Positions 300-11,010 of a stretch of 64,000 nucleotides of DNA are shown in pieces (position 1 is the first letter of the stretch; every line of letters begins with the position of its first letter). Below the pieces are notes generated by a model. The model worked only from the letters and a program-made list of their open reading frames with translations. It searched no databases and had not been told where the DNA came from. Source of the DNA: an uncultured delta proteobacterium (GTDB taxonomy: Bacteria; Myxococcota_A; Polyangia; Polyangiales; Polyangiaceae); NCBI GenBank assembly GCA_963782055.1, contig CAWAIF010000003.1:4160001-4224000 (forward strand), in the 5' to 3' direction. The position numbers and the translations under genes are program-made.

Positions 300-3200
300 A
301 TGTCCGATCTTCGTTTCGACGGGCGCGTGGTCATCGTCACCGGCGCGGGCAACGGCCTCGGCAAGTCGCACGCGCTGCTCTTCGCCTCGCGCGGCGCCAG
401 GGTGGTCGTCAACGACCTGGGCGGCAAGCACGACGGCACCGGCAAGGGCTCCGCCGCCGCGGACGCGGTGGTCAAGGAGATCAAGGACGCGGGCGGCGAG
501 GCCGTCGCCAACTACGACTCGGTGGAGGACGGCGCCAAGATCGTCCAGACCGCGATGGACGCCTTCGGGCAGATCGACGTCGTGGTCAACAACGCCGGCA
601 TCCTGCGCGACACCTCCTTCCAGAAGATGACGCAGGACGACTGGGACCTCATCTACCGCGTCCACGTCCTGGGCGCCTACCGCGTCACCCACGCCGCGTG
701 GAACGTCACCGGCGGCATGCGGGAGAAGAGCTACGGCCGCGTCATCCTCACGTCCAGCGCCGCGGGCATCTACGGCAACTTCGGCCAGACCAACTACTCC
801 ATGGCCAAGCTGGGCCTGGTCGGCATGGCGCAGACCCTCGCCATCGAGGGCAAGAAGCGCAACATCCGGGTCAACGCCATCGCGCCCATCGCCGGCTCGC
901 GCATGACCGAGACGGTGCTGCCGAAGGACATGATCGACGCGCTCCGCCCGGAGTACGTCAGCCCGCTCGTCGCGTGGCTGTGCAGCGAGGAGTGCGAGGA
1001 GAGCGGCGGCCTCTTCGAGCTGGGCGGCGGCTTCTTCGGCAAGCTCCGCTGGCAGCGCAGCGAGGGCAAGACCTTCAAGCTGGGCCGCAACATCACCCCG
1101 GAGGACGTGCGCAAGTCCTTCGGCGACATCAGCGGCTTCGAGAAGGTCACCTACCCGACCGACATCCAGGCCTCGATGCAGCCCATCGTCGCCAACCTGG
1201 GCACCAAGAGCCGCGGCGGCAACGATCTCATCGACGTCGACGCCGCCCTGGACGCGCCGCCCATCAAGGCGGAGTCGCGCTACGACGAGCGCGACGTGTC
1301 CCTCTACGCCCTGGGCGTGGGCGCCGCGGAGAACCCGCTCGACGCCAAGGACCTGTCCCTCGTCTACGAGATGAGCGGCGAGGGCTTCCACGTGCTGCCC
1401 ACCTTCGCCGTCATCCCGGCGATGAAGGTCATCTTCGACGGCTTCAAGAAGGGCGAGAAGGCGCCGGGCCTCAACTACGGCTTCGAGCGCATCCTGCACG
1501 GCGAGCAGTACACCGAGGTCAAGCGCCCGCTGCCGACGCACGCCAAGCTGCGGCACGAGGTGAAGATCAAGGACATCTACGACAAGGGCAAGAACGCCAT
1601 CGTCGTGACGGCCATCAAGACCTTCGACGAGAGCGGCGACGAGCTCGCCTACAACGAGCTCACCTCCTTCGTCCGCGGCGCGGGCGGCTGGGGCGGCGAC
1701 CGCGGCCCCTCGACCGACGTCAACGTGGCGCCCGATCGCAAGCCGGACGCGGTGGTGGAGGAGAAGACGCACCCCAACCAGGCGCTGCTCTACCGCCTCT
1801 CCGGGGACATCAACCCGCTCCACGCCGACCCGTCCTTCGCGCAGGGCTTCGGCTTCGACAAGCCCATCCTGCACGGTCTGTGCAGCTTCGGCTTCGCCGC
1901 GCGCGCGGTCATCAAGGCGATGAGCGGCGGCGATCCGCGCTTCTTCAAGAGCATCAAGGTGCGCTTCGCCGACACGGTGTTCCCCGGCGAGACGCTCGTC
2001 ACCGAGATGTGGAAGGAGTCCAAGACGCGCATCGTCTTCCGCACCAAGGTCAAGGAGCGCGACAAGGTCGTCATCTCCAACGCGGCGGTCGAGCTCTACG
2101 AGGAGATCCCCAAGCCCAAGCCCAAGCCGGCGGCCAAGCCCGCGCAGGCGACGACCACCGCGCCGACGATGCCCATCAGCGCCGACGTCTTCCACGCCAT
2201 CGGCGAGTTCATCGAGCAGAACTCGGCGATGGTCGGCAAGATCGCCACCGTCTACCAGTTCAAGCTCACCGGCCCGGACTCCGTCTGGACGGTGGACCTG
2301 AAGAACGGCAAGGGCTCGGTCACCCACGGCGCCACCACCGCGCCGGAGTGCACGCTCGAGCTCAGCGACGCCGACTTCATGGCCATGTGCACCGGCAAGG
2401 CCGACTCCATGAAGCTCTTCATGGAGAAGAAGCTGCGCATCTCCGGCAACCTCATGGCCAGCCAGAAGCTGGAGTTCCTCAAGAAGATCGATCCGCAGCT
2501 CGTCATCAACGCGATGAACGAGCGCGGGGGCGACGCGGTCGCACAGACGGGCGACGCGGGCACCGGCGGCCCGGACGCGCAGGAGCCCTCGGCGTCGGAC
2601 ATCTTCGCCGTCATCGGCGACTTCATCGGCCAGAACCCGGAGATGGCCGGCAAGATCGCTGTCGTCTATCAGTTCAAGCTCACCAGCCCCGACAGCGTCT
2701 GGACGGTCGACCTGAAGAACGGCAAGGGCTCCGTCGCCGAGGGCGAGACCGCCAAGCCGGAGTGCACGCTGGAGCTCACCGAGGCAGACTTCCTCGCGAT
2801 GACGACAGGCAAGAGCGACCCCATGAAGCTCTTCATGGACAAGAAGCTGCGCATCTCCGGCAACCTGATGGCCAGCCAGAAGCTCGAGTTCCTCAAGAAG
2901 ATGGACCCCGAGAAGGCCAAGAAGATCATCGCCGAGCGCAAGGGCAAGTCGGGCGGCGCTACGGCGGCGAAGGCCGCGCCGGCGGCGGCTCCGGCCCGGA
3001 GCAAGGCCGGACAGGCGGCGGCCATCTTCGCCGCGCTGGGCAAGCGCCTCGCCGAGCAGCCCGCCCTCGCCAAGGAGGTGGGCGCGGTGCTCCAGTTCGC
3101 GGTGGACGACAAGCAGTGGGTCGTCGACCTGACGGGCAAGGGCGCGGTGAAGGAGGGCTCCGACCCCGAGGCCGCCGCCACCATCCGCATGTCCGACGCG

Positions 3201-3323
3201 GACCTCGTCGCCCTGGTCAAGGGCGCCGAGAGCGCGCTGTCGCTCTACATGCACGATCAGCTGCGCGTCGACGGCGACGTCCGCGTGGCGCAGAAGCTGG
3301 GTTTCCTGAACAAGTTGGTGTGA
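300..3323 (+). CDS. Multifunctional enzyme type 2-like protein: SDR 3-hydroxyacyl-CoA dehydrogenase + MaoC/hydratase-2 + three SCP2 domains
   Basis: TGAGNGLG, NNAGILRD and YSMAK SDR motifs; YRLSGDINPLHADP and ILHGLCSFG hydratase-2 motifs; repeated WTVDLKNGKG...KLRISGNL SCP2 units; SD-like AGGAG/GAGGA upstream. Confidence 0.93.
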   Translation: MSDLRFDGRVVIVTGAGNGLGKSHALLFASRGARVVVNDLGGKHDGTGKGSAAADAVVKEIKDAGGEAVANYDSVEDGAKIVQTAMDAFGQIDVVVNNAGILRDTSFQKMTQDDWDLIYRVHVLGAYRVTHAAWNVTGGMREKSYGRVILTSSAAGIYGNFGQTNYSMAKLGLVGMAQTLAIEGKKRNIRVNAIAPIAGSRMTETVLPKDMIDALRPEYVSPLVAWLCSEECEESGGLFELGGGFFGKLRWQRSEGKTFKLGRNITPEDVRKSFGDISGFEKVTYPTDIQASMQPIVANLGTKSRGGNDLIDVDAALDAPPIKAESRYDERDVSLYALGVGAAENPLDAKDLSLVYEMSGEGFHVLPTFAVIPAMKVIFDGFKKGEKAPGLNYGFERILHGEQYTEVKRPLPTHAKLRHEVKIKDIYDKGKNAIVVTAIKTFDESGDELAYNELTSFVRGAGGWGGDRGPSTDVNVAPDRKPDAVVEEKTHPNQALLYRLSGDINPLHADPSFAQGFGFDKPILHGLCSFGFAARAVIKAMSGGDPRFFKSIKVRFADTVFPGETLVTEMWKESKTRIVFRTKVKERDKVVISNAAVELYEEIPKPKPKPAAKPAQATTTAPTMPISADVFHAIGEFIEQNSAMVGKIATVYQFKLTGPDSVWTVDLKNGKGSVTHGATTAPECTLELSDADFMAMCTGKADSMKLFMEKKLRISGNLMASQKLEFLKKIDPQLVINAMNERGGDAVAQTGDAGTGGPDAQEPSASDIFAVIGDFIGQNPEMAGKIAVVYQFKLTSPDSVWTVDLKNGKGSVAEGETAKPECTLELTEADFLAMTTGKSDPMKLFMDKKLRISGNLMASQKLEFLKKMDPEKAKKIIAERKGKSGGATAAKAAPAAAPARSKAGQAAAIFAALGKRLAEQPALAKEVGAVLQFAVDDKQWVVDLTGKGAVKEGSDPEAAATIRMSDADLVALVKGAESALSLYMHDQLRVDGDVRVAQKLGFLNKLV

Positions 3324-3346
3324 GCGACTCCGGAGAAGGTGCAGCC

Positions 3347-4525
3347 ATGAAGCGTCGAGTCAATGTGATTGGCGTCGGGATGATCAAGTTCAGCAAGCCC
3401 GGCGCGAGCGAGGACTACAACGTGATGGCCGCCAAGGCGGCCCGCGCGGCCATCGAGGACGCCAAGGTGCCCTACGCCGAGATCGAGCAGGCCTACGCCG
3501 GCTACGTCTACGGCGACTCCACCTGCGGCCAGCGCGCCGTCTACGAGGTGGGCCTGACCGGCATCCCCGTCTTCAACGTCAACAACAACTGCTCCACCGG
3601 CTCGACCGCGCTGATGCTCGGCCGCCAGGCGGTCGAGGGCGGCATCGCCGAGTGCGTGCTCGTCGTCGGCTTCGAGCAGATGGAGAAGGGCGCGCTCGGC
3701 AGCAAGTTCACCGACCGCACCAACCCGCTCGACCAGCACGCGGGCGTGATGAGCAAGGTGCAGGGCTTCAACAACGCGCCCCCCGCCGCGCAGATGTTCG
3801 GCGGCGCCGGCCGGGAGTACCGCTGGCGCTACGGGACGAAGAAGGAGACCTTCGGCAAGGTCAGCGAGAAGGCGCGCAAGCACGCGCACCAGAACCCCCT
3901 CGCCATCTTCAACAACCTGCTGACGCTGGAGGAGATCATGACCTCCCCGGAGGTCTTCGACCCGCTGACGCGCTACCAGTGCTGCCCGCCCACCTGCGGC
4001 GCAGCGGCGGCGGTCATCTGCTCCGACGACTTCGCCAAGAAGCACAACATCCAGAAGCCGGTCTACATCGCCGCGCAGGCCATGACGACGGACTACCAGT
4101 CCAGCTTCGGCGACTCGATGATCAAGATGGTCGGCTACGACATGACGGTGAACGCCGCGAAGAAGGTCTACGAGGAGAGCGGCATCGGCCCGGAGGACGT
4201 GGACGTCGTCGAGCTGCACGACTGCTTCACCGCGAACGAGATCCTCACCTACGAGGGCCTCGGCCTGTGCAAGGAGGGCGAGGCGGAGAAGTTCATCGAG
4301 GAGGGGCAGAACACGTACGGGGGCAAGTACGTGACGAACCCGTCGGGCGGGCTCCTGTCCAAGGGGCATCCGCTCGGGGCGACGGGGCTCGCGCAGTGCA
4401 CCGAGCTGGTGTGGCAGCTCCGGGGGCAGGCGGACAAGCGGCAGGTGGAGGGGGCGAAGGTCGCGCTGCAGCACAACCTGGGGCTGGGCGGGGCGTGCGT
4501 CGTGACGATGTACAGGAAGGATTAG
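3347..4525 (+). CDS. SCPx-type thiolase (lipid-transfer protein family)
   Basis: Starts MKRRVNVIGVGM after GGAG; NVNNNCSTGS, ELHDCF, SKGHPLGATG and QHNLGLGG motifs. The upstream part of ORF 62..4525 is a shadow frame. Confidence 0.93.
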   Translation: MKRRVNVIGVGMIKFSKPGASEDYNVMAAKAARAAIEDAKVPYAEIEQAYAGYVYGDSTCGQRAVYEVGLTGIPVFNVNNNCSTGSTALMLGRQAVEGGIAECVLVVGFEQMEKGALGSKFTDRTNPLDQHAGVMSKVQGFNNAPPAAQMFGGAGREYRWRYGTKKETFGKVSEKARKHAHQNPLAIFNNLLTLEEIMTSPEVFDPLTRYQCCPPTCGAAAAVICSDDFAKKHNIQKPVYIAAQAMTTDYQSSFGDSMIKMVGYDMTVNAAKKVYEESGIGPEDVDVVELHDCFTANEILTYEGLGLCKEGEAEKFIEEGQNTYGGKYVTNPSGGLLSKGHPLGATGLAQCTELVWQLRGQADKRQVEGAKVALQHNLGLGGACVVTMYRKD

Positions 4526-4549
4526 GGGGGCCCCTCCTCGCGTGTGCTC

Positions 4550-4634
4550 GGGCCCATGCTCGCTCGCACGCGTGCCGTCGGTGGGTGCGAGGTGCACCGG
4601 CGTCGGCACGCGCGCGAGCTTGCGCGTGGGCCCT
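4550..4634. repeat. Long imperfect stem-loop (REP-like or terminator-like) after the thiolase
   Basis: GGGCCCA...GCTCGCACGCGTGCCG pairs with CGGCACGCGCGCGAGC...TGGGCCC. Confidence 0.55.
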
Positions 4635-4778
4635 GCGCGCACGCGCAAGCTCGCCCGTCGCTCGCTCGCGCTCGCTCGGGACGGGGAGGATGGTGTCGTG
4701 CACGACCCTTCCTCGGCGGAGATGCGTCGTTGACCCTCCCCTCCCCCGCGTTCGAGGAACGGGGTGGGCGGCGCACGA

Positions 4779-4905
4779 GGGGCTTCGTGCAGCGCCACGC
4801 CGGTGGGCGGAAGAAGCCCGCCGGCCTTCCGGGTGGGCGAGCTGGCGTGACTGCGGCCGTCATGCTTCTTTCGCCTCGGGAGGGCATGGCGCTGCACGAA
4901 GCCCC
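4779..4905. repeat. Perfect 19-bp inverted repeat
   Basis: GGGGCTTCGTGCAGCGCCA (4779-4797) is the exact reverse complement of TGGCGCTGCACGAAGCCCC (4887-4905). Confidence 0.85.
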
Positions 4906-5028
4906 CTCGCTCTTCTTCCTCCATCACCACGCTCGGCGGATCCGGCGGGAGGATGCGACGCGGTCGGAGGTGATGATGTGGCGGGCGCTCAAGGGGCGGA
5001 AGGTGGGCGGGTGAAGTTCCGGCGGCGG
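4886..5028 (+). pseudogene. DUF559 (Vsr-like endonuclease) N-terminal remnant
   Basis: [28 protein letters not shown], then VKFRR in a shifted frame; matches the family-typical AR.LR...T.AE..LW..LR....G.KFRRQ start; truncated. Confidence 0.6.
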
Positions 5029-5092
5029 CGAGAGCGGCTCGGACTGGTCGGAAGCGCGCGCGCGCATCCTTCGGCGTCTCGGCCACGCGTGA
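5015..5092 (+). pseudogene. Addiction-module antitoxin C-terminal remnant
   Basis: [25 protein letters not shown]; its TGA overlaps the GTG of the following ParE-like gene (GTGA); no start codon in frame. Confidence 0.5.
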
Positions 5093-5364
5093 AGCTGCGC
5101 ATCGATCCGGAAGCAGAGGAGGAGCTCGCCGCTGCCACGACGTGGTACGAGTCCCAGCGCGCAGGACTGGGCGCGGACCTCGTGGCTGCGGTGGACGCGG
5201 CGTTCGAAGCAATCCTGTCGGCCCCGCTCGCGTCTCATCGCGCTGGCGAGCGCGTTCCTCGCCCCGGGCGGCGAAGCGTACGTGGGGGGCGAGACGTACG
5301 TGGCGAAGCCGGCGGGGACGCTCTTTCGCCGCGCACCGTGACCCGACACGATCAGCGACGATAG
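5089..5364 (+). pseudogene. RelE/ParE-family toxin, N-terminal half only
   Basis: [46 protein letters not shown] is a typical ParE N-terminus; the C-terminal RFPY...AH motifs are absent. Confidence 0.65.
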
Positions 5365-5593
5365 TCGCGCCGCATGGATCCGTCGTGGCGGCCGCTGCGC
5401 ATGCAGCAGGCCTTGAAACCGCCTCGTCGACCCGCACGGGCACGGATCGTTGCGACCGAGGCGCTCGAGGAGCTCCTTGTCGCCGTGCACGACGCGGTCA
5501 CCGCGCTTGACGTGGGCTTCGGACGGGAAGCCCGCGCGGCGCTTGCTCGTCCGCTCGAAAGCAGGGGGCTTCCAGGTGGTCCTCGGGTCTCAT
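5352..5593 (-). CDS. Small SEC-C zinc-binding protein needing two +1 frame changes (copy 1)
   Basis: SD GGAGGT + ATG 5593; +1 frame gives [48 protein letters not shown]; a second +1 gives FKACCMRSG...YRR-stop, completing the CPCGSxxxFKxCC motif. Confidence 0.7.
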
Positions 5594-6143
5594 GGCGCAC
5601 CTCCCGGTGTGCTGGACGCACGCGCGGCGCGCGCCTGACATCGCTCGCGCGCGGCTCAACGGCGAGGCTCGTCCCCACCGGGAGCTCCATCACCAGACCC
5701 CGCGTCGCGTAGCCGAGGCGCTCGTAGAGCTCGCGTGCGCGGGTGTTCCAGCTCCAGACGTGGAGCTGGACGGCCTCGGCGCCCTTGGAGGCGGCCCACG
5801 CGTGCGCGGCCTCGAGGAGGGCGCGGCCGACGCCACGACCTCGGTCCGGCTCGCGCACGACGACGCCCTCGACGACGGCGACGCGGCGCGGGACGGACCC
5901 GTCTCCGTCGCGCGGGGGCTTCATCAGCACCTCGACGACGCCCAGGACGGCGCCGTCCTCGCGCGCGACCAGGAGGGCGTGATCCGGGGAGCGGATCCGT
6001 TCGAGCATCCAGTCCATGGATCGCGCGGGGCCCGCGCGCGGGCGGAACACGTCGGGCGTCTTCTCGGCGTGGACATGATCGGATTCGGCGAGCACCTCGC
6101 AGACCGCGTCGTAGTCGGCCAGGGCGGCGGGTTCGACCAGCAT
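5352..6143 (-). CDS. GNAT acetyltransferase copy 1; 3' indel near 5670 removes the stop and gives read-through
   Basis: [10 protein letters not shown] and [11 protein letters not shown] motifs; near-identical to 9399..9887 up to VME, then diverges in frame. Confidence 0.8.
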
Positions 6144-6160
6144 CGAGAGAGGCTAGCACC
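5424..6160. repeat. Direct duplication copy A (GNAT + SEC-C, ~735 bp)
   Basis: Aligns by eye with 9173..9904 at high identity. Confidence 0.92.
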
Positions 6161-6323
6161 CGAACACGATCGACCAGGAAGTCGCCCGGCTCCTGGGCCT
6201 CACGGGGCTCTACGGGCGTCGCCCCACTTCCGAGGCGCGAGCGCTCGAGTCGGCATGGCTTCCCATCGAGCCCACATCGCCGTCGGACCCTTTGGCCGAC
6301 GTGCGCAGCGGCGGCCCGTCGTC

Positions 6324-6950
6324 TCAGAATCGCCCTGCCACGCCGGCGACTGCGCCGCCTGGCAGGAGCGAGACCACCGGCACGGCGTCGGGATCGGACG
6401 CCTTTTTCGGGTACGTCCTCGCGAGGAAGGCCGCATCGATCGCCATCGCGGCGACGATACCCACGCCGGAGCCGACGATGCCGGCGTAGATCATCGCGTT
6501 CTCGTCGCTCACGGTTCCGCCGCCCCCGCCGCAGTTGAAGCACCCCCGGCCGTAGGGAGCTCGCTGCACGAGCGAGCCGAACGCCGCGCCGAGAAATCCG
6601 TTCGCCACGAGCGAGAAGGTGTGCAGCCCCAGGCTCGCAAGACCGATGAGGCCGCGGCCGTGAAACCAGTGCACCGTGGGCGCGGCGAAGATGGCCGCAC
6701 CGCCGACGAGCAAGGACGGCACGGGGTTGCCCGTCGTCAGGGCTAGCCCCGCGCTCCCCGCGACCGCCCCGAGCGCCACCACGTCGGCGAGGACGATCTG
6801 GCCGGGATAGGACGGCATCGGAGCCTGGTGATGCTCCACCGGCGGCAGCATCGGATCGTCCACCACGTCCGGGGCGGCGGCGTGCGCGCTGCTCGCCAGA
6901 CTGCAGACCGCGAACGCCACGCACGTGGCCAGCACCGCGCCGACTCGCAT
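6324..6950 (-). CDS. Exported/membrane hypothetical protein
   Basis: Signal peptide MRVGAVLATCVAFAVCSLASSAHA; Gly/Ala-rich hydrophobic segments; ends VAGRF. Confidence 0.75.
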   Translation of the reverse strand: MRVGAVLATCVAFAVCSLASSAHAAAPDVVDDPMLPPVEHHQAPMPSYPGQIVLADVVALGAVAGSAGLALTTGNPVPSLLVGGAAIFAAPTVHWFHGRGLIGLASLGLHTFSLVANGFLGAAFGSLVQRAPYGRGCFNCGGGGGTVSDENAMIYAGIVGSGVGIVAAMAIDAAFLARTYPKKASDPDAVPVVSLLPGGAVAGVAGRF

Positions 6951-7039
6951 GCGCTCAGCGTACTGCCCCGCGGTGCTCGACGCCACGTGGGCCACGGCGG
7001 GCACCGGAGAAGGACGCGCGGGCTGGTGGCCGGGAGGGA

Positions 7040-8182
7040 TCACGAACGGCCGCGTTCGAGCGATGCCTCGAGGCGCTCCTCGTCCAGGGTCTCGTCGGAC
7101 GCGGCCTCCAGGGCGACGCGCACGTGCGGATCGGCGGACTGGTTGGCGGCCACGCGGACGGTGACGCGCGCCTCCGGATCGTCACGCAGCGCGAGGGCAG
7201 CCCCGACGCGCCGCTCGAGCGCGACCTTCGGGTCGACGACCACGCCCACCAGGTCCGTGCGATCGAGCGCCGCGTCGCGGAAGCCGCCGCCCGCGAGCTT
7301 GCGCAGCTCGGCGATCCACGCGCCCGTGGACCGACCCCCGCGCTCGAGCGACTCGAGGGCGCGCGCCGAGTCCCTCTCGTAGCGCGCGCGGCCGTCGCGG
7401 ATTCGCCCGACGATCGCGTCCACGCGCGCGCGCGTCTGGGCGACCAGGGGCAGCACCAGCCTCCCGCTCTCCAGGCCGACGACGATCTGCTCGCCGGTGC
7501 CCTGGCTCGGGTCGAGCGAGCAGACGTTCACGGCACGGATGGCCGAGTACGGGACGAAGCGCGGGCGGAGCACGCCCGTCGTCCGGAGCCCGTCGAGCCC
7601 CACGATCACGCCGGGTCGCAGCTTCTTGACGACGAGCACCGTCGCGGCGACCGCCACGATGGGAGGAACGGCGAGGGCCGCCGCAGTTAGGTGCAGCGAC
7701 GCCATCACGACGGAGGCGACAATCCACGTGCTCATGAACCCGAGGAGCCCGCGGGTGAAGACGCCGAGGACGCCCCGCAGCGATGCGGAGAGCGCGCGCT
7801 GATCCAGCGTGAGCCCCAGCTCCGCGAGCACGTCGGCCGGGGTCCGGTCCGCCGGCTCGGCCTCGATCACCGCGCCGTCGCGCGCGTGGAGGATCACCTT
7901 GGATCCGGCCCTGTAGCCGTCCTCGACCGTCCGCGCGTCGACGTCGAGCACGACGTCGTGCCGGAGGCGGCGGCCGGCCAGGACGGCGGCAAGCACCGCA
8001 ATCCCGAGTCCGGTGACGAGCACCGCACCCACGGGCGCCGACCACGACGCCAGCATGATCGCCGCGAGCGGTGTGACGACGAGGCCGGCGACGGCCGCGA
8101 GCGCCACGCGCCAGCGATTCGAGCCGACGCGCAGCGTGCGGCAGGGCACGTGGAGCATCTTCGCGCGGCTCGAGCGGGTCAT
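7040..8182 (-). CDS. Membrane hypothetical protein
   Basis: Two pairs of TM helices and a helical C-terminus (RGGRSTGAWIAELRKL...RRVGAALAL); start uncertain. Confidence 0.7.
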   Translation of the reverse strand: MTRSSRAKMLHVPCRTLRVGSNRWRVALAAVAGLVVTPLAAIMLASWSAPVGAVLVTGLGIAVLAAVLAGRRLRHDVVLDVDARTVEDGYRAGSKVILHARDGAVIEAEPADRTPADVLAELGLTLDQRALSASLRGVLGVFTRGLLGFMSTWIVASVVMASLHLTAAALAVPPIVAVAATVLVVKKLRPGVIVGLDGLRTTGVLRPRFVPYSAIRAVNVCSLDPSQGTGEQIVVGLESGRLVLPLVAQTRARVDAIVGRIRDGRARYERDSARALESLERGGRSTGAWIAELRKLAGGGFRDAALDRTDLVGVVVDPKVALERRVGAALALRDDPEARVTVRVAANQSADPHVRVALEAASDETLDEERLEASLERGRS

Positions 8183-8219
8183 CGACGCGAGTGTAGCGGA
8201 CGGCGCCGGATGCCACACG

Positions 8220-8975
8220 TCAGGGCGGCGTGGGTCCCGGGGCGGCGCACAGCTTCGAGGAGCCGGCGCGGCAGCCGATGCGGGTCGCTCGGTCGATGGC
8301 CTTCGACACGAGCGGACTCGACGGCGCGTTCTGCAGGACGCCCACCAGGTACTCGCACGCCGTCGCCACGCCGTCGGGGTGGTCGAGCGCACCGTCGCAG
8401 CCTCTGAGCAGTGCCTGCAGCGCCCGGGAGCGATCTTGCGGGACGCCTTCCCCCCGCGCATACGCCGCACCGGCCATGGCGCAGCCCTCCGCCTCGCCGG
8501 CGGCGCAGGCGAGCGCGAAGAGCCTGGCGGCGCACGCGAGGCTCACCGGATCGCGATGCTCCAGGCGCACCGTCGCACCGTAGTTGGTGCACCCGAGCAC
8601 GTTCCCCAGACGACACGCTCGCTCGTAGAGCCGCAGCTCCTTGCCGCGGTCGGGGTGGTCCGACTCCGCGTCCATGTTGCCTGCGGTCACGCACGCCGGG
8701 GCGCCGCCCGCGTCGCAGGCGCGCTCGCACGCGTGCGCGTCGCCGCACGCGTCGTCCGGCTCCAGACCGGAGATGGCGCCTGCGGGCGCCGCGCAGGCGG
8801 CGATGGCCGGCTTCGCGGACGAGGCTGAAGGCGCAGGCGCGTCGGGCAGGCGTACCTCGGTGGCCGCAGGCGACGCGGGTGGAGGGCTGCTCCCGGCACC
8901 GCACCCGAGCATGAGCAACACGCCGCAAACCGCGCGGACGTGTCGGGCGGCGAGAGGGAGGGTCGGTGGCTTCAT
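8220..8975 (-). CDS. Sel1-like repeat Cys-rich lipoprotein
   Basis: Lipobox LMLGC; repeats [28 protein letters not shown] and [14 protein letters not shown]. Confidence 0.8.
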
Positions 8976-9172
8976 CGCGAGCCGGAGAGTGGTCGGAGCG
9001 CGCAGCGATGGCAAGCCGGGCGCTCGCGCGTGGCGCACCCCGGACCGGGCACCGGCAGTCGCAGCACGCCGTTGAGTGCGAGACCCCAGGTGCCATCCGC
9101 CCCGCTCGTCTGCGTCTGCCTTGCGATGGCGGTCGAAGCTCTCCCGCGACGCCCACGGCATCGCGCATGGGT

Positions 9173-9342
9173 TCGTCGATCCGCACGGGCACGGATCGTT
9201 GCGGCCGAGGCGCTCGAGGAGCTCCTTGTCGCCGTGCACGACGCGGTCACCGCGCTTGACGTCGGCCTCGGACGGGAACCCCGCGCGGCGCTTGCTCGTC
9301 CGCTCGAAAGCAGGGGGCTTCCAGGTGGTTCTTGGTTCTCAT
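9173..9342 (-). pseudogene. SEC-C gene copy 2, 3'-truncated
   Basis: Same SD/ATG and same TTT-CGA site (9309-9304); lacks the RRF-KACC tail. Confidence 0.7.
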
Positions 9343-9398
9343 GGCGCACCTCCCCGTGTGCTTGACGCACGCGCGGCGCGCGCCTGACACCGCGTCGC

Positions 9399-9887
9399 TC
9401 ACCGGCGAGGCTCGCCCCACAGCGGGATCTCCATCACCAGGCCCCGCGTCGCGTAGCCGAGGCGCTCGTAGAGCTCGCGCGCGCGGGTGTTCCAGCTCCA
9501 GACGTGGAGCTGGACGGCCTCGGCGCCCTTCGAGGCGGCCCAAGCGTGCGCGGCCTCGAGGAGGGCGCGGCCGACGCCGCGGCCCCGGTCGGGCTCGCGC
9601 ACGACGACGCCCTCGACGACGGCGACGCGGCGCGGGACGAAGCCGTCCCCTTCGCGCGGCGGCTTCATCAGGACCTCGACGACGCCCAGCACGGCGCCGT
9701 CCTCGCGCGCGACGAGGAGCGCGCGATCCGGGGAGCGGAGCTGCTCGAGCATCCAGTCCATGGATCGCGTGGGGCCGGTGCGCGGGCGGAAGACGTGGGG
9801 CGTCTTCTCGGCGTGCAGGCGGTCGGACTCGGCGAGCACGTCGCAGACCGCATCGTAGTCGGCGAGGACGGCGGGTTCGACCAGCAT
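9399..9887 (-). CDS. GNAT acetyltransferase copy 2 (intact)
   Basis: 162 aa; [10 protein letters not shown] acetyl-CoA motif; [13 protein letters not shown]. Confidence 0.88.
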   Translation of the reverse strand: MLVEPAVLADYDAVCDVLAESDRLHAEKTPHVFRPRTGPTRSMDWMLEQLRSPDRALLVAREDGAVLGVVEVLMKPPREGDGFVPRRVAVVEGVVVREPDRGRGVGRALLEAAHAWAASKGAEAVQLHVWSWNTRARELYERLGYATRGLVMEIPLWGEPRR

Positions 9888-9930
9888 CGGGAGAAGCTAC
9901 CACCACCGCCCAGGAAGCGGCGGGCGTCGA

Positions 9931-10467
9931 TCACCGCGCGGGGCGCGGATCGGGGCGCGGCAAGGGGACCGCGGGCGCGCCATCGAGGACGCGACCGCTG
10001 CGGCTCATCGCGTAGTGGAGGAGCTGATCGGCGTCGAGCTCGACGGAGAGCATGCTCTCGTCCGAGAACCACGCGTTGGGCCAGTAGATCAGATCGCTCA
10101 CGTTCGCGCCGGGGAAGTTCTCCTCCAGCCAGTCGAGGAAGTAGTCGTGCTCGGCCGGCGGCAGCTCCCCGGCGGCGACGGCCGCGAAGACGTCGCGCGC
10201 CTCGGCGTACGTGAGGTCCGGGGCGCGCGCGGGCGCGTGGGCGAGCGCGTTCTTCACGAAGTGCTTCGTCGAGATCGCGCCGGCGTACGTGCGGAACTCC
10301 GCCGGCGCGTAGGCGCGGGCGGCGCGCGCGTTCCACCGCGCGAGGAGGGCATCCAGCTCCGGCGCCTCGTCGATGGCGGCCTGTTCGATCTGGTGGCAGA
10401 GAGCGACCATCTCGTCGACGTCGCGCTTCGTGGGCTTGACGAAGCGAAGACGGCTCGGGACGGGCAT
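9931..10467 (-). CDS. Bacteriocin (colicin/pyocin) immunity-like protein
   Basis: LTYAEARDVFAAV...EHDYFLDWLEENFPGANVSDLIYWP resembles the Im-protein SDLIYYP motif; N-terminal extension. Confidence 0.6.
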   Translation of the reverse strand: MPVPSRLRFVKPTKRDVDEMVALCHQIEQAAIDEAPELDALLARWNARAARAYAPAEFRTYAGAISTKHFVKNALAHAPARAPDLTYAEARDVFAAVAAGELPPAEHDYFLDWLEENFPGANVSDLIYWPNAWFSDESMLSVELDADQLLHYAMSRSGRVLDGAPAVPLPRPDPRPAR

Positions 10468-10634
10468 GGGCGGAGGATAGCGTCGCCCGGGGTCCTCGGG
10501 CGAGCGCTGCCCCACCCGCGCGTCGATGCGGGACGGCCAGCGCAAGGACGGGCTTCGCGCGTCGCCGGTACGACGTCGTGTCCGGCGGGCCCGCGCGAGC
10601 GCGCGCGCGGGTATCATGACGTCCGGAGGGTCCC

Positions 10635-10880
10635 ATGGGATTCGAGTACAAGATCCGCTTCGACGTGCCGCCTGCCTTCCCCGAGGAGCTGCTCGCCAAG
10701 CGCCCGCCCGATCCGACGATCCCGGGCAGCGAGTGGGTCGAGTACGACTACAAGCTCGAACCGTACGGCTTCTACTTCGTGGACCACGGCGGCAACCGGG
10801 AGACGTCCTCCGTCGCCTTCCGGTGCCTCGTCGACGCGGCGCTGGAGTACGGCGGCGCCGCGGTGATCGAGGAGCTCTGA
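10635..10880 (+). CDS. Small acidic hypothetical protein (immunity-like)
   Basis: SD GGAGG; 81 aa MGFEYKIRF...GFYFVDHGG...VIEEL; good codon bias. Confidence 0.75.
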   Translation: MGFEYKIRFDVPPAFPEELLAKRPPDPTIPGSEWVEYDYKLEPYGFYFVDHGGNRETSSVAFRCLVDAALEYGGAAVIEEL

Positions 10881-10904
10881 CGGCGCCTCTCGAGACCGCC
10901 CGGA

Positions 10905-11010
10905 TCACTTCGACGTCAGCGTCATCACCGTCTGGCCGAAGAAGTATGACCCAGTACACGCTCGTGCCGTCCACGGCGATGTCGCGTGGATCGAGCTGCC
11001 CGGAGGCCGG
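10905..11010 (-). pseudogene. C-terminal remnant of a beta-propeller repeat protein
   Basis: ASGQLDPRDIAVDGTSVYWV, frameshift, then FFGQTVMTLTSK-stop; same IAVD...VFW repeat type as 15569..16590. Confidence 0.5.

Follow-up and report, generated by a model that had tools for sequence, protein, structure and literature searches.

Layout of the small gene and its truncated copy

The window, by which we mean the whole 64,000-nucleotide stretch of DNA that was analysed, carries on its minus strand a small gene at 5593-5352 that needs +1 shifts at TTT-C 5560 and TTT-C 5418. The ATG at 5593 is preceded by a strong Shine-Dalgarno (SD) sequence, GGAGGTG (5598..5604, minus strand), and the upstream regions of 154 homologs likewise show a G-rich SD peak, at -11 to -7. 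Frame 0 from this ATG reaches a stop after 31 codons. Segment 1 (5558..5593, minus strand) is formed by the ATG and a 12-codon leader whose last codon is the first Phe codon; among homologs the length (9-19 codons) and residues of this segment vary and its frame is constant. The first shift site, TTT-C with CGA as the 0-frame A-site codon (5557..5560, minus strand), opens segment 2 (5416..5556, minus strand), a basic core that runs through the first half of a SEC-C motif (CPC) and whose internal Phe codon is TTC, not TTT. The second site, TTT-C followed by CAA in frame 0 (5415..5418, minus strand), leads into segment 3 (5352..5414, minus strand), which holds the Cys-Cys pair completing SEC-C, Asp-Gly, a terminal Arg and the TGA at 5354-5352. 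Two further sites of the family, sites 3 and 4, map to segment 3 in homologs and are absent from the window copy.

When TTT-Y is read as a four-base step the window gene yields 79 aa, which match Pfam SEC-C over model positions 1-19 with 34 bits (cut-off 20.4); the unshifted core matches only positions 1-9. The strong SD and ATG, the two in-frame TTT-C sequences and a complete SEC-C motif in a product of about 79 aa had all been described in an earlier note on this DNA and were found as claimed. Its remark that TTT is rare also agrees with host codon use, in which TTT makes up 3.3% of Phe codons in 2601 long ORFs; CAA and CGA occur at 1.1 and 3.1 per 1000. We found no Rfam match at E<=1 within window 4000-11000, and no sigma-70 promoter or terminator on the strand of the gene.

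Upstream of the small gene and co-oriented with it lies a GNAT acetyltransferase gene (5657..6143, minus strand; Pfam PF00583, E 1.4e-19), a second copy of which (9399..9887, minus strand) was duplicated along with the small gene. Copy 2 of the small gene (9173..9342, minus strand) has its ATG at 9342 and site 1 at 9309, as the earlier note had said in calling this site common to both copies, and it diverges at about 9173, ahead of site 2 and the last two Cys, and is therefore truncated. Four of the five core differences between the copies are synonymous in the +1 frame, in line with the note; of the three leader differences, two are synonymous in +1 and all three alter the 0-frame residue. 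The note had also cautioned that the first shift might occur earlier, or that another start might be used. Neither caveat held: in both copies the +1 frame has TGA directly after the A of the ATG, and among 140 homologs an SD-led ATG, GTG or TTG in the core frame is present in 7, with no such start codon at all in 77.

The core frame of copy 2 continues into a downstream 339-codon ORF (window 8220-9342, minus strand), so that one +1 shift could yield a fusion protein; this ORF has a weak Sel1 repeat match (E 0.004). GNAT copy 1 is one base shorter than copy 2 near 5672, with the consequence that its stop is lost and the ORF continues to the TGA at 5352. The resulting ORF (5352-6143, minus strand) crosses the small gene and shares its last 21 codons and stop, through mutation or assembly error. 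GNAT genes are no conserved neighbour of the small gene in homolog loci. Elsewhere in the window, on the plus strand, short ORF remnants at 5018-5364 converge with the gene and resemble by eye a decayed addiction-module antitoxin and ParE-like toxin (no Pfam match), and 300-4525 encodes a multifunctional dehydrogenase/hydratase with SCP2-like repeats followed by an SCPx-type thiolase.

Recurrent frame breaks in the homolog family

Homologs were collected with the 48-aa core as query. At least 176 of the first 600 GTDB pattern matches proved to be relatives, as did at least 594 of 599 in metagenomes, and the best 80 were kept from each search. Four loci were added from relatives, two from a phylum sample and two from viral contigs, and a tblastn cut-off of 1e-8 removed weak long-ORF matches to the SEC-C motif only. 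There were 168 anchored loci (two dropped for a broken anchor), from which we took away five with a break inside the basic motif (read by eye), copy 2 and two duplicates to leave 160. Homologs come from at least 12 phyla, the named records bearing 12 phylum labels in the tree, and cultured hosts named in the records include Caulobacter vibrioides OR37, Chthoniobacter flavus, Sphingobium aquiterrae, Rhodopirellula and Desulfatibacillum. The gene is patchy: among top candidates scored, strong matches were found in 3 of 301 genomes of the host's phylum (host counted) and in 3 of 251 genomes in the phylum of another carrier (L051), and carriers made up 11 of 251 genomes in the order of a third (L031). 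GenBank phages gave no match to the small gene. Searches of mobile elements gave two plasmid records and 20 viral-contig matches, of which 2 are family members and 18 share the SEC-C motif only.

Four recurrent +1 sites are found in the family. Two are used by the window copy and its close relatives and three by most homologs, the 140 decodable loci having two shifts in 16 cases, three in 109, four in 14 and one only in L050, the start of which was mis-picked. A single rule, by which every TTT-Y met in frame counts as a step of four bases, recovers the protein in 131 of the 159 loci that have a start, and inclusion of CTT-C adds 8; of the 20 loci that fail, 3 are cut contigs, 2 are pattern misses, 8 have an in-frame TTT-Y that needs normal reading and 7 are apparently damaged. 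Site 1, at the leader end, requires +1 with an in-frame TTT-Y in 142 of 160 loci and +2 in 8, where TTTT-TTTC makes two tandem steps; seven mis-picked starts (L007, L043, L050, L091, L116, L141 and L188) also fit, and the exceptions are L076 (no motif), L131 (contiguous) and L039 (contig without the leader). Site 2, before Lys-x-Cys-Cys, is shifted in 117 of 160 loci and contiguous in 40, with TTC or TTT-purine in place of the motif. Both breaks of the window gene therefore recur in homologs, a check that the earlier note had proposed. Site 3, before Asp-Gly, has TTT-Y in 63 loci. In another 11 it breaks without TTT-Y, and in 10 of these CTT-C is present at the break or close to it. Site 4, before the terminal Arg-Glu/Asp, was found in 108 loci. 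In evenly drawn samples 12 of 12 non-centre matches have three breaks at TTT-Y, three of these repeating earlier loci. A site relocated to the internal Gly-Phe was seen in L093, L096 and L162, and nine loci have an in-frame TTT-Y that must not shift. The break could not be assigned to the motif in L121 and L197; in these and in L055 breaks without YTT-Y lie near TTC-CCT-G, AAA-A and CTG-C, which may be other +1 motifs or errors. The earlier note's proposal of serial shifts at two sites is accordingly upheld as regards programmed multiple +1 recoding and revised as regards the number, since four sites recur and three is the norm.

A motif-blind alignment of 145 loci downstream of site 1, in which +1 and -1 shifts were allowed anywhere, placed 273 +1 shifts and one -1 shift, although the profile was built from rule-decoded rows and the result is in part circular. 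TTT-Y lies within one codon of 252 of the 273, and CTT-Y within one codon of 9; 11 of the 12 others have a TTT-Y just beyond that distance.

We found no complete single-frame homolog among the loci or among the 255 database proteins that ranked highest in a comparison with the full-length profile. The break falls at site 2 in 86 of these proteins, at site 3 in 141 and at site 4 in 22; the anchor is missing in 5, and the sole one with the whole tail lacks the N-terminus. The earlier note had held that continuous single-frame homologs would make the gene a pseudogene or an assembly indel; what the homologs keep is TTT-Y with a frame break. Every decoded segment has codon positions 1 and 2 conserved and position 3 free, with TTT as the only fixed synonymous choice. 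We take the gene to be real and under purifying selection. At the internal Gly-Phe-Pro, where a shift would destroy the protein, TTC is used in 99 and TTT in 6 of 105 cases, as against 39% TTT in Phe-Y contexts of neighbouring ORFs, and TTT-C occurs there 5 times where 21 were expected (58 loci with their own background). It might still be supposed that the family consists of pseudogenes, assembly errors or separate short ORFs with internal starts, in view of the truncated copy 2, the roughly 7 of 159 loci that look damaged and the annotation of the gene in databases as single fragments. We give this hardly any credence: the same breaks occur in more than 150 independent assemblies, isolates included, selection acts on every segment, and most loci have no alternative start.

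The number of sites appears to be held while their positions change. Sites 2-4 are mutually exclusive, the variance of their total being 0.22 compared with 0.71 under permutation, and exactly two of the three are present in 110 of 128 rows, compared with a mean of 49% and a maximum of 72% in 5000 independent simulations on a gene tree inferred with the site columns masked. This tree is weak, with only 11 of its 125 branches starred, and yields two supported independent pairs of site compensation, which is not significant; with too few supported contrasts for a sign test, conservation of the number of sites near three with turnover of their positions is likely, not proven. Selection extends to the last site. 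The terminal Arg is conserved in 126 of 129 aligned decodes, so even the site that adds two residues gates something selected, and since it gates only the C-terminal Arg-(Glu/Asp), the shifts would gate the whole protein rather than just the metal motif. Of the suggestion that recoding gates production of the complete metal-binding motif, the gating therefore survives and the restriction to the motif does not, site 2 being contiguous in 40 of 160 loci.

Codon context, decoded protein and genomic neighbours

YUU-Y is a sequence on which tRNA-Phe(GAA) or tRNA-Leu(GAG) can re-pair. The A-site codons are CGA or TGA at sites 1 and 3, CAA at site 2 (94 of 109 decoded cases, with TAA in 7) and TAG or CAG at site 4. 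Stops occupy the A site in 34 of 146 cases at site 1, 9 of 109 at site 2, 33 of 64 at site 3 and 44 of 97 at site 4, and both window sites have sense codons. At site 1 (142 loci) the 5′ codon is TCC in 39 and TGC in 37, with CGA in the A site in 57; sites 2 and 4 do not fit UCC_UUU_CGN. The last Arg codon is AGR in 82 of 126 loci, which places YAG in the A site, and core Arg codons are mostly CGN. Taken together, this usage suggests selection for slow codons that avoids the stop read by both release factors.

Built-in stimulators were sought beside the sites. Anti-SD pairing below -4 kcal occurs in fractions of 0.05, 0.18, 0.12 and 0.01 of cases at sites 1-4, compared with 0.09 in the control, which gives no indication of an internal SD. 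Mean energies of 3′ windows are -8.3, -11.1 and -6.8 at sites 1-3 against -9.5 in the control (-13.6 at site 4, beyond the stop), likewise without sign of 3′ structure, and the homolog alignment has no conserved synonymous stretch beside the sites.

The T runs at the sites are mostly T3-T4, with some of T6-T7, and CTT-C amounts to T2. A base might be dropped at the RNA level, by polymerase realignment or editing, with standard translation thereafter, and a short T run at all sites, longer at some, would suit such a process. The prevalence of runs of only T3-T4 or T2, in place of a long homopolymer, makes it very improbable, as do the location of the sites in frame with the upstream segment, the avoidance of TTT-Y in frame and the biased choice of A-site codons.

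A single ordinary tRNA-Phe(GAA), with a loop of 7 bases, is encoded by the host, blastn revealing no second copy, and both miaA and miaB are present. No tRNA-Phe with an expanded anticodon loop was found in the host or among tRNAs in homolog loci. In-frame TTT-Y occurs in 797 of 2601 long host ORFs, which together with the ordinary tRNA-Phe and miaA/miaB means that there is no genome-wide code change. Quadruplet decoding by a suppressor tRNA was rejected on the normal loop of tRNA-Phe(GAA) and the lack of a second copy. Some tRNA-like genes near homologs (L070:3361-3432, L181, L205, L206, L213 and L179) have odd anticodon arms, one of them with a TTA (ochre) anticodon and several with 4-6-base loops. 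In the host, a tRNA-like element with an enlarged anticodon loop is flanked by a transposase-like ORF on one side and a long ATPase-like ORF on the other (G000:C3:6242435-6242514, L219).

A trans-acting factor might instead make UUU-Y a four-base codon, in a form of autoregulation or a positive-feedback switch; it could be the protein itself, some partner of it, or a ribosome or tRNA that has undergone repair or alteration. Such a factor would explain why a near-deterministic rule decodes 131 of 159 loci, tandem TTTT-TTTC included, and why TTT-Y is strongly avoided elsewhere in the gene, and it would fit the absence of a cis stimulator and a product that is basic and metal-binding by motif. 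Its existence nevertheless seems rather doubtful given the single ordinary tRNA-Phe and the miaA and miaB genes of the host, the many host ORFs with in-frame TTT-Y, the fact that CTT-C works too and the nine loci with a TTT-Y that must not shift.

The decoded product is a basic protein of about 80 aa with SEC-C in its C-terminal half. All four Cys are present in 129 of 129 aligned decodes (the last two belonged to the selection pattern), which points to a predicted Zn or Fe binder. No NCBIfam model reaches its cut-off and no family model covers the protein; Foldseek and a PDB sequence search found only SEC-C knuckles, the rest of the protein having no relative there, and the ESM Atlas gave SEC-C clusters only and nothing once those were skipped. 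AlphaFold with a 55-row alignment returned a poor model (pLDDT 61, pTM 0.39). The SecA metal domain binds the ribosome, and by this analogy, together with charge and genomic context, we would guess that the product binds ribosomes or RNA.

Recurrent neighbours in the first 168 loci are genes for HNH (9), SPFH (8), RtcB (8), HD with AAA_33 (4) and Ro60/TROVE (3) proteins, and also RlaP and RNA ligase; PcfJ lies near 4 loci, in some cases at a distance. The gene is often found inside tRNA arrays. A tRNA or RNA-repair neighbour is present in 40 of 179 loci and in 26 of the 111 whose flanks are long (a few loci being counted twice); the window copy has neither, sitting behind the GNAT gene with host rtcB, HNH and SPFH genes elsewhere. 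Of 10 non-centre matches in the evenly drawn sample of the order, 6 have rtcB at a distance of up to about 2 kb and 8 have it anywhere, against a background in that order of 111 of 251 genomes (the 111 including the unpublished G376). At the genome level there is no co-occurrence with the Ro60 vWA domain (1 of 11 carriers compared with 9 of 251 genomes). Sigma-54, LexA, CIRCE and WYL-type motifs are not enriched upstream of 154 homologs, the enriched words being pieces of tRNA. In the host an HNH gene stands beside scattered Arg and Cys tRNAs (G000:C3:5472631-5488009), possibly a decayed tRNA array. No fixed co-oriented downstream gene was found among 109 loci scored (54 co-oriented, 55 opposite), and by this split the gene is no leader for a fixed downstream gene; the shifted product is itself under selection.

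In Anabaena, according to two studies (PMC8421152, PMC10272220), ribosome-targeting antibiotics induce tRNA arrays, HNH, slipin and rtcB. TrcR represses these genes, and its loss induces them and lowers fidelity. SEC-C does not appear in the main text of either study. Genomic context of this kind lends some support to the putative stress-sensing role that the earlier note had proposed.

Proposed serial +1 shifting and related systems

Any explanation has to account for the frame breaks, their motif, selection on the segments, conservation of site number and the recurrent neighbours. On balance we favour programmed +1 slippage of the ribosome at serial sites, by which the gene would respond to translation stress as a steep switch, and hold this to be probable with some reserve, the sensing role, the ribosomal mechanism and the function of the protein being its conjectural parts. 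The mRNA of the SEC-C protein would carry two to four programmed +1 sites, usually three. With a slow codon (CGA, CAA, CAG, UGA or UAG) in the A site, peptidyl-tRNA-Phe(GAA) would there leave UUU and pair with the UUY that begins one base further on; at some sites tRNA-Leu would do so from CUU. Since the sites have no stimulator built into them, a slip at any one of them should seldom occur in healthy cells, and since n slips are required, output would go roughly as p^n, so that a strongly initiated mRNA would give little protein under normal decoding.

A UUU-CAA site is reported to slip +1 through P-site tRNA-Phe under a shortage of Gln-tRNA, and lack of ms2io6A37 to induce +1 slippage (PMC3617221); MiaA levels vary with stress and alter frameshifting (PMC9303304). 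PA-X shifting is given as about 1% (PMC3498833). At such a rate per site, three slips in a row with no stimulation would leave next to no product, and a boost of some kind would be needed. Output might rise once decoding slows or frame-keeping weakens, as through tRNA cleavage or depletion, loss of ms2i6A37 or ribosome-targeting antibiotics, and the product would then probably serve a translation or RNA-repair response, most likely through ribosome or RNA binding.

Slippage could also be real and serve as a fixed damper, with a product that is needed in trace or is harmful and about three sites that set a constant low level. A site count kept near three, the solitary position of most copies in unrelated contexts and the lack of a common upstream regulator motif would all be expected of a damper. 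We nonetheless think it unlikely, since a weak SD or start codon would be cheaper, yet the SD is strong and conserved, and since the context includes stress-induced tRNA arrays and rtcB. Serial slippage as a stress switch could be taken a step further, to a multi-site frameshift gauge without cis elements, in which the number of +1 sites, kept near three by selection wherever the sites lie, sets the steepness with which ribosome frame-keeping is read and the product feeds back on damaged ribosomes or tRNAs; for this extended form we put the chances at about even.

No description of the small-gene family was found in the openly accessible literature searched, and SEC-C is absent from the main text and two of three supplements of Antonov 2013. 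The gene appears to represent a bacterial chromosomal family that requires several consecutive +1 frameshifts, apparently an undescribed variant of programmed frameshifting in the form of a conserved serial +1 frameshift gene. Its conserved site number with site turnover would offer a natural test of compounded frameshifting as an ultrasensitive sensor, and of whether frame-keeping relaxes under stress.

Among known systems, SEC-C proteins (the SecA C-terminal metal domain, YecA and YchJ; PF02810) share the complete four-Cys motif once the family is decoded; unlike them, the family product stands alone at 80 aa and its remainder has no known relative. Multi-shift genes of Euplotes and of some mitochondria reflect organism-wide tolerant decoding, whereas the family is a single accessory gene in hosts that read TTT-Y normally. 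They resemble it in having several +1 shifts per coding sequence (10-12 shifts), and, as far as the available part of the same review goes, serial +1 shifting is confined to a ciliate gene and to genes of mitochondria, with two -1 shifts in use by retroviruses (PMC5009743). That part also describes the E. coli pheL and ermCL leaders, which are likewise short ORFs with shifting tied to Phe codons or ribosome drugs; the family differs in having no fixed downstream gene and a shifted product that is itself selected.

Site 1 of the family, which often reads TCC/TGC-TTT-CGA, may be set beside influenza PA-X (UCC_UUU_CGU). PA-X has a single site of about 1% in eukaryotic viruses that makes a second product, in contrast to serial sites that make the only conserved product. 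In prfB (RF2), too, the shift lies close to the start of a bacterial gene and +1 P-site re-pairing on YUU-U controls the full-length product; some family sites are TTT-TGA or CTT-C, and taken singly each family site would operate much as prfB or PA-X does. According to bioRxiv 2024.09.24.614795, prfB has one site, an internal SD and a stop codon, whereas the family has two to four sites, no internal SD, mostly sense A-site codons and site turnover. The tRNA-array RtcB/HNH/slipin stress regulon, as set out in PMC8421152 and PMC10272220, has the same neighbours as a subset of the loci, with the gene often inside the array; most family copies lie outside such loci. The decoded protein would be a new candidate for membership of the modules by which bacteria repair RNA and meet translation stress.
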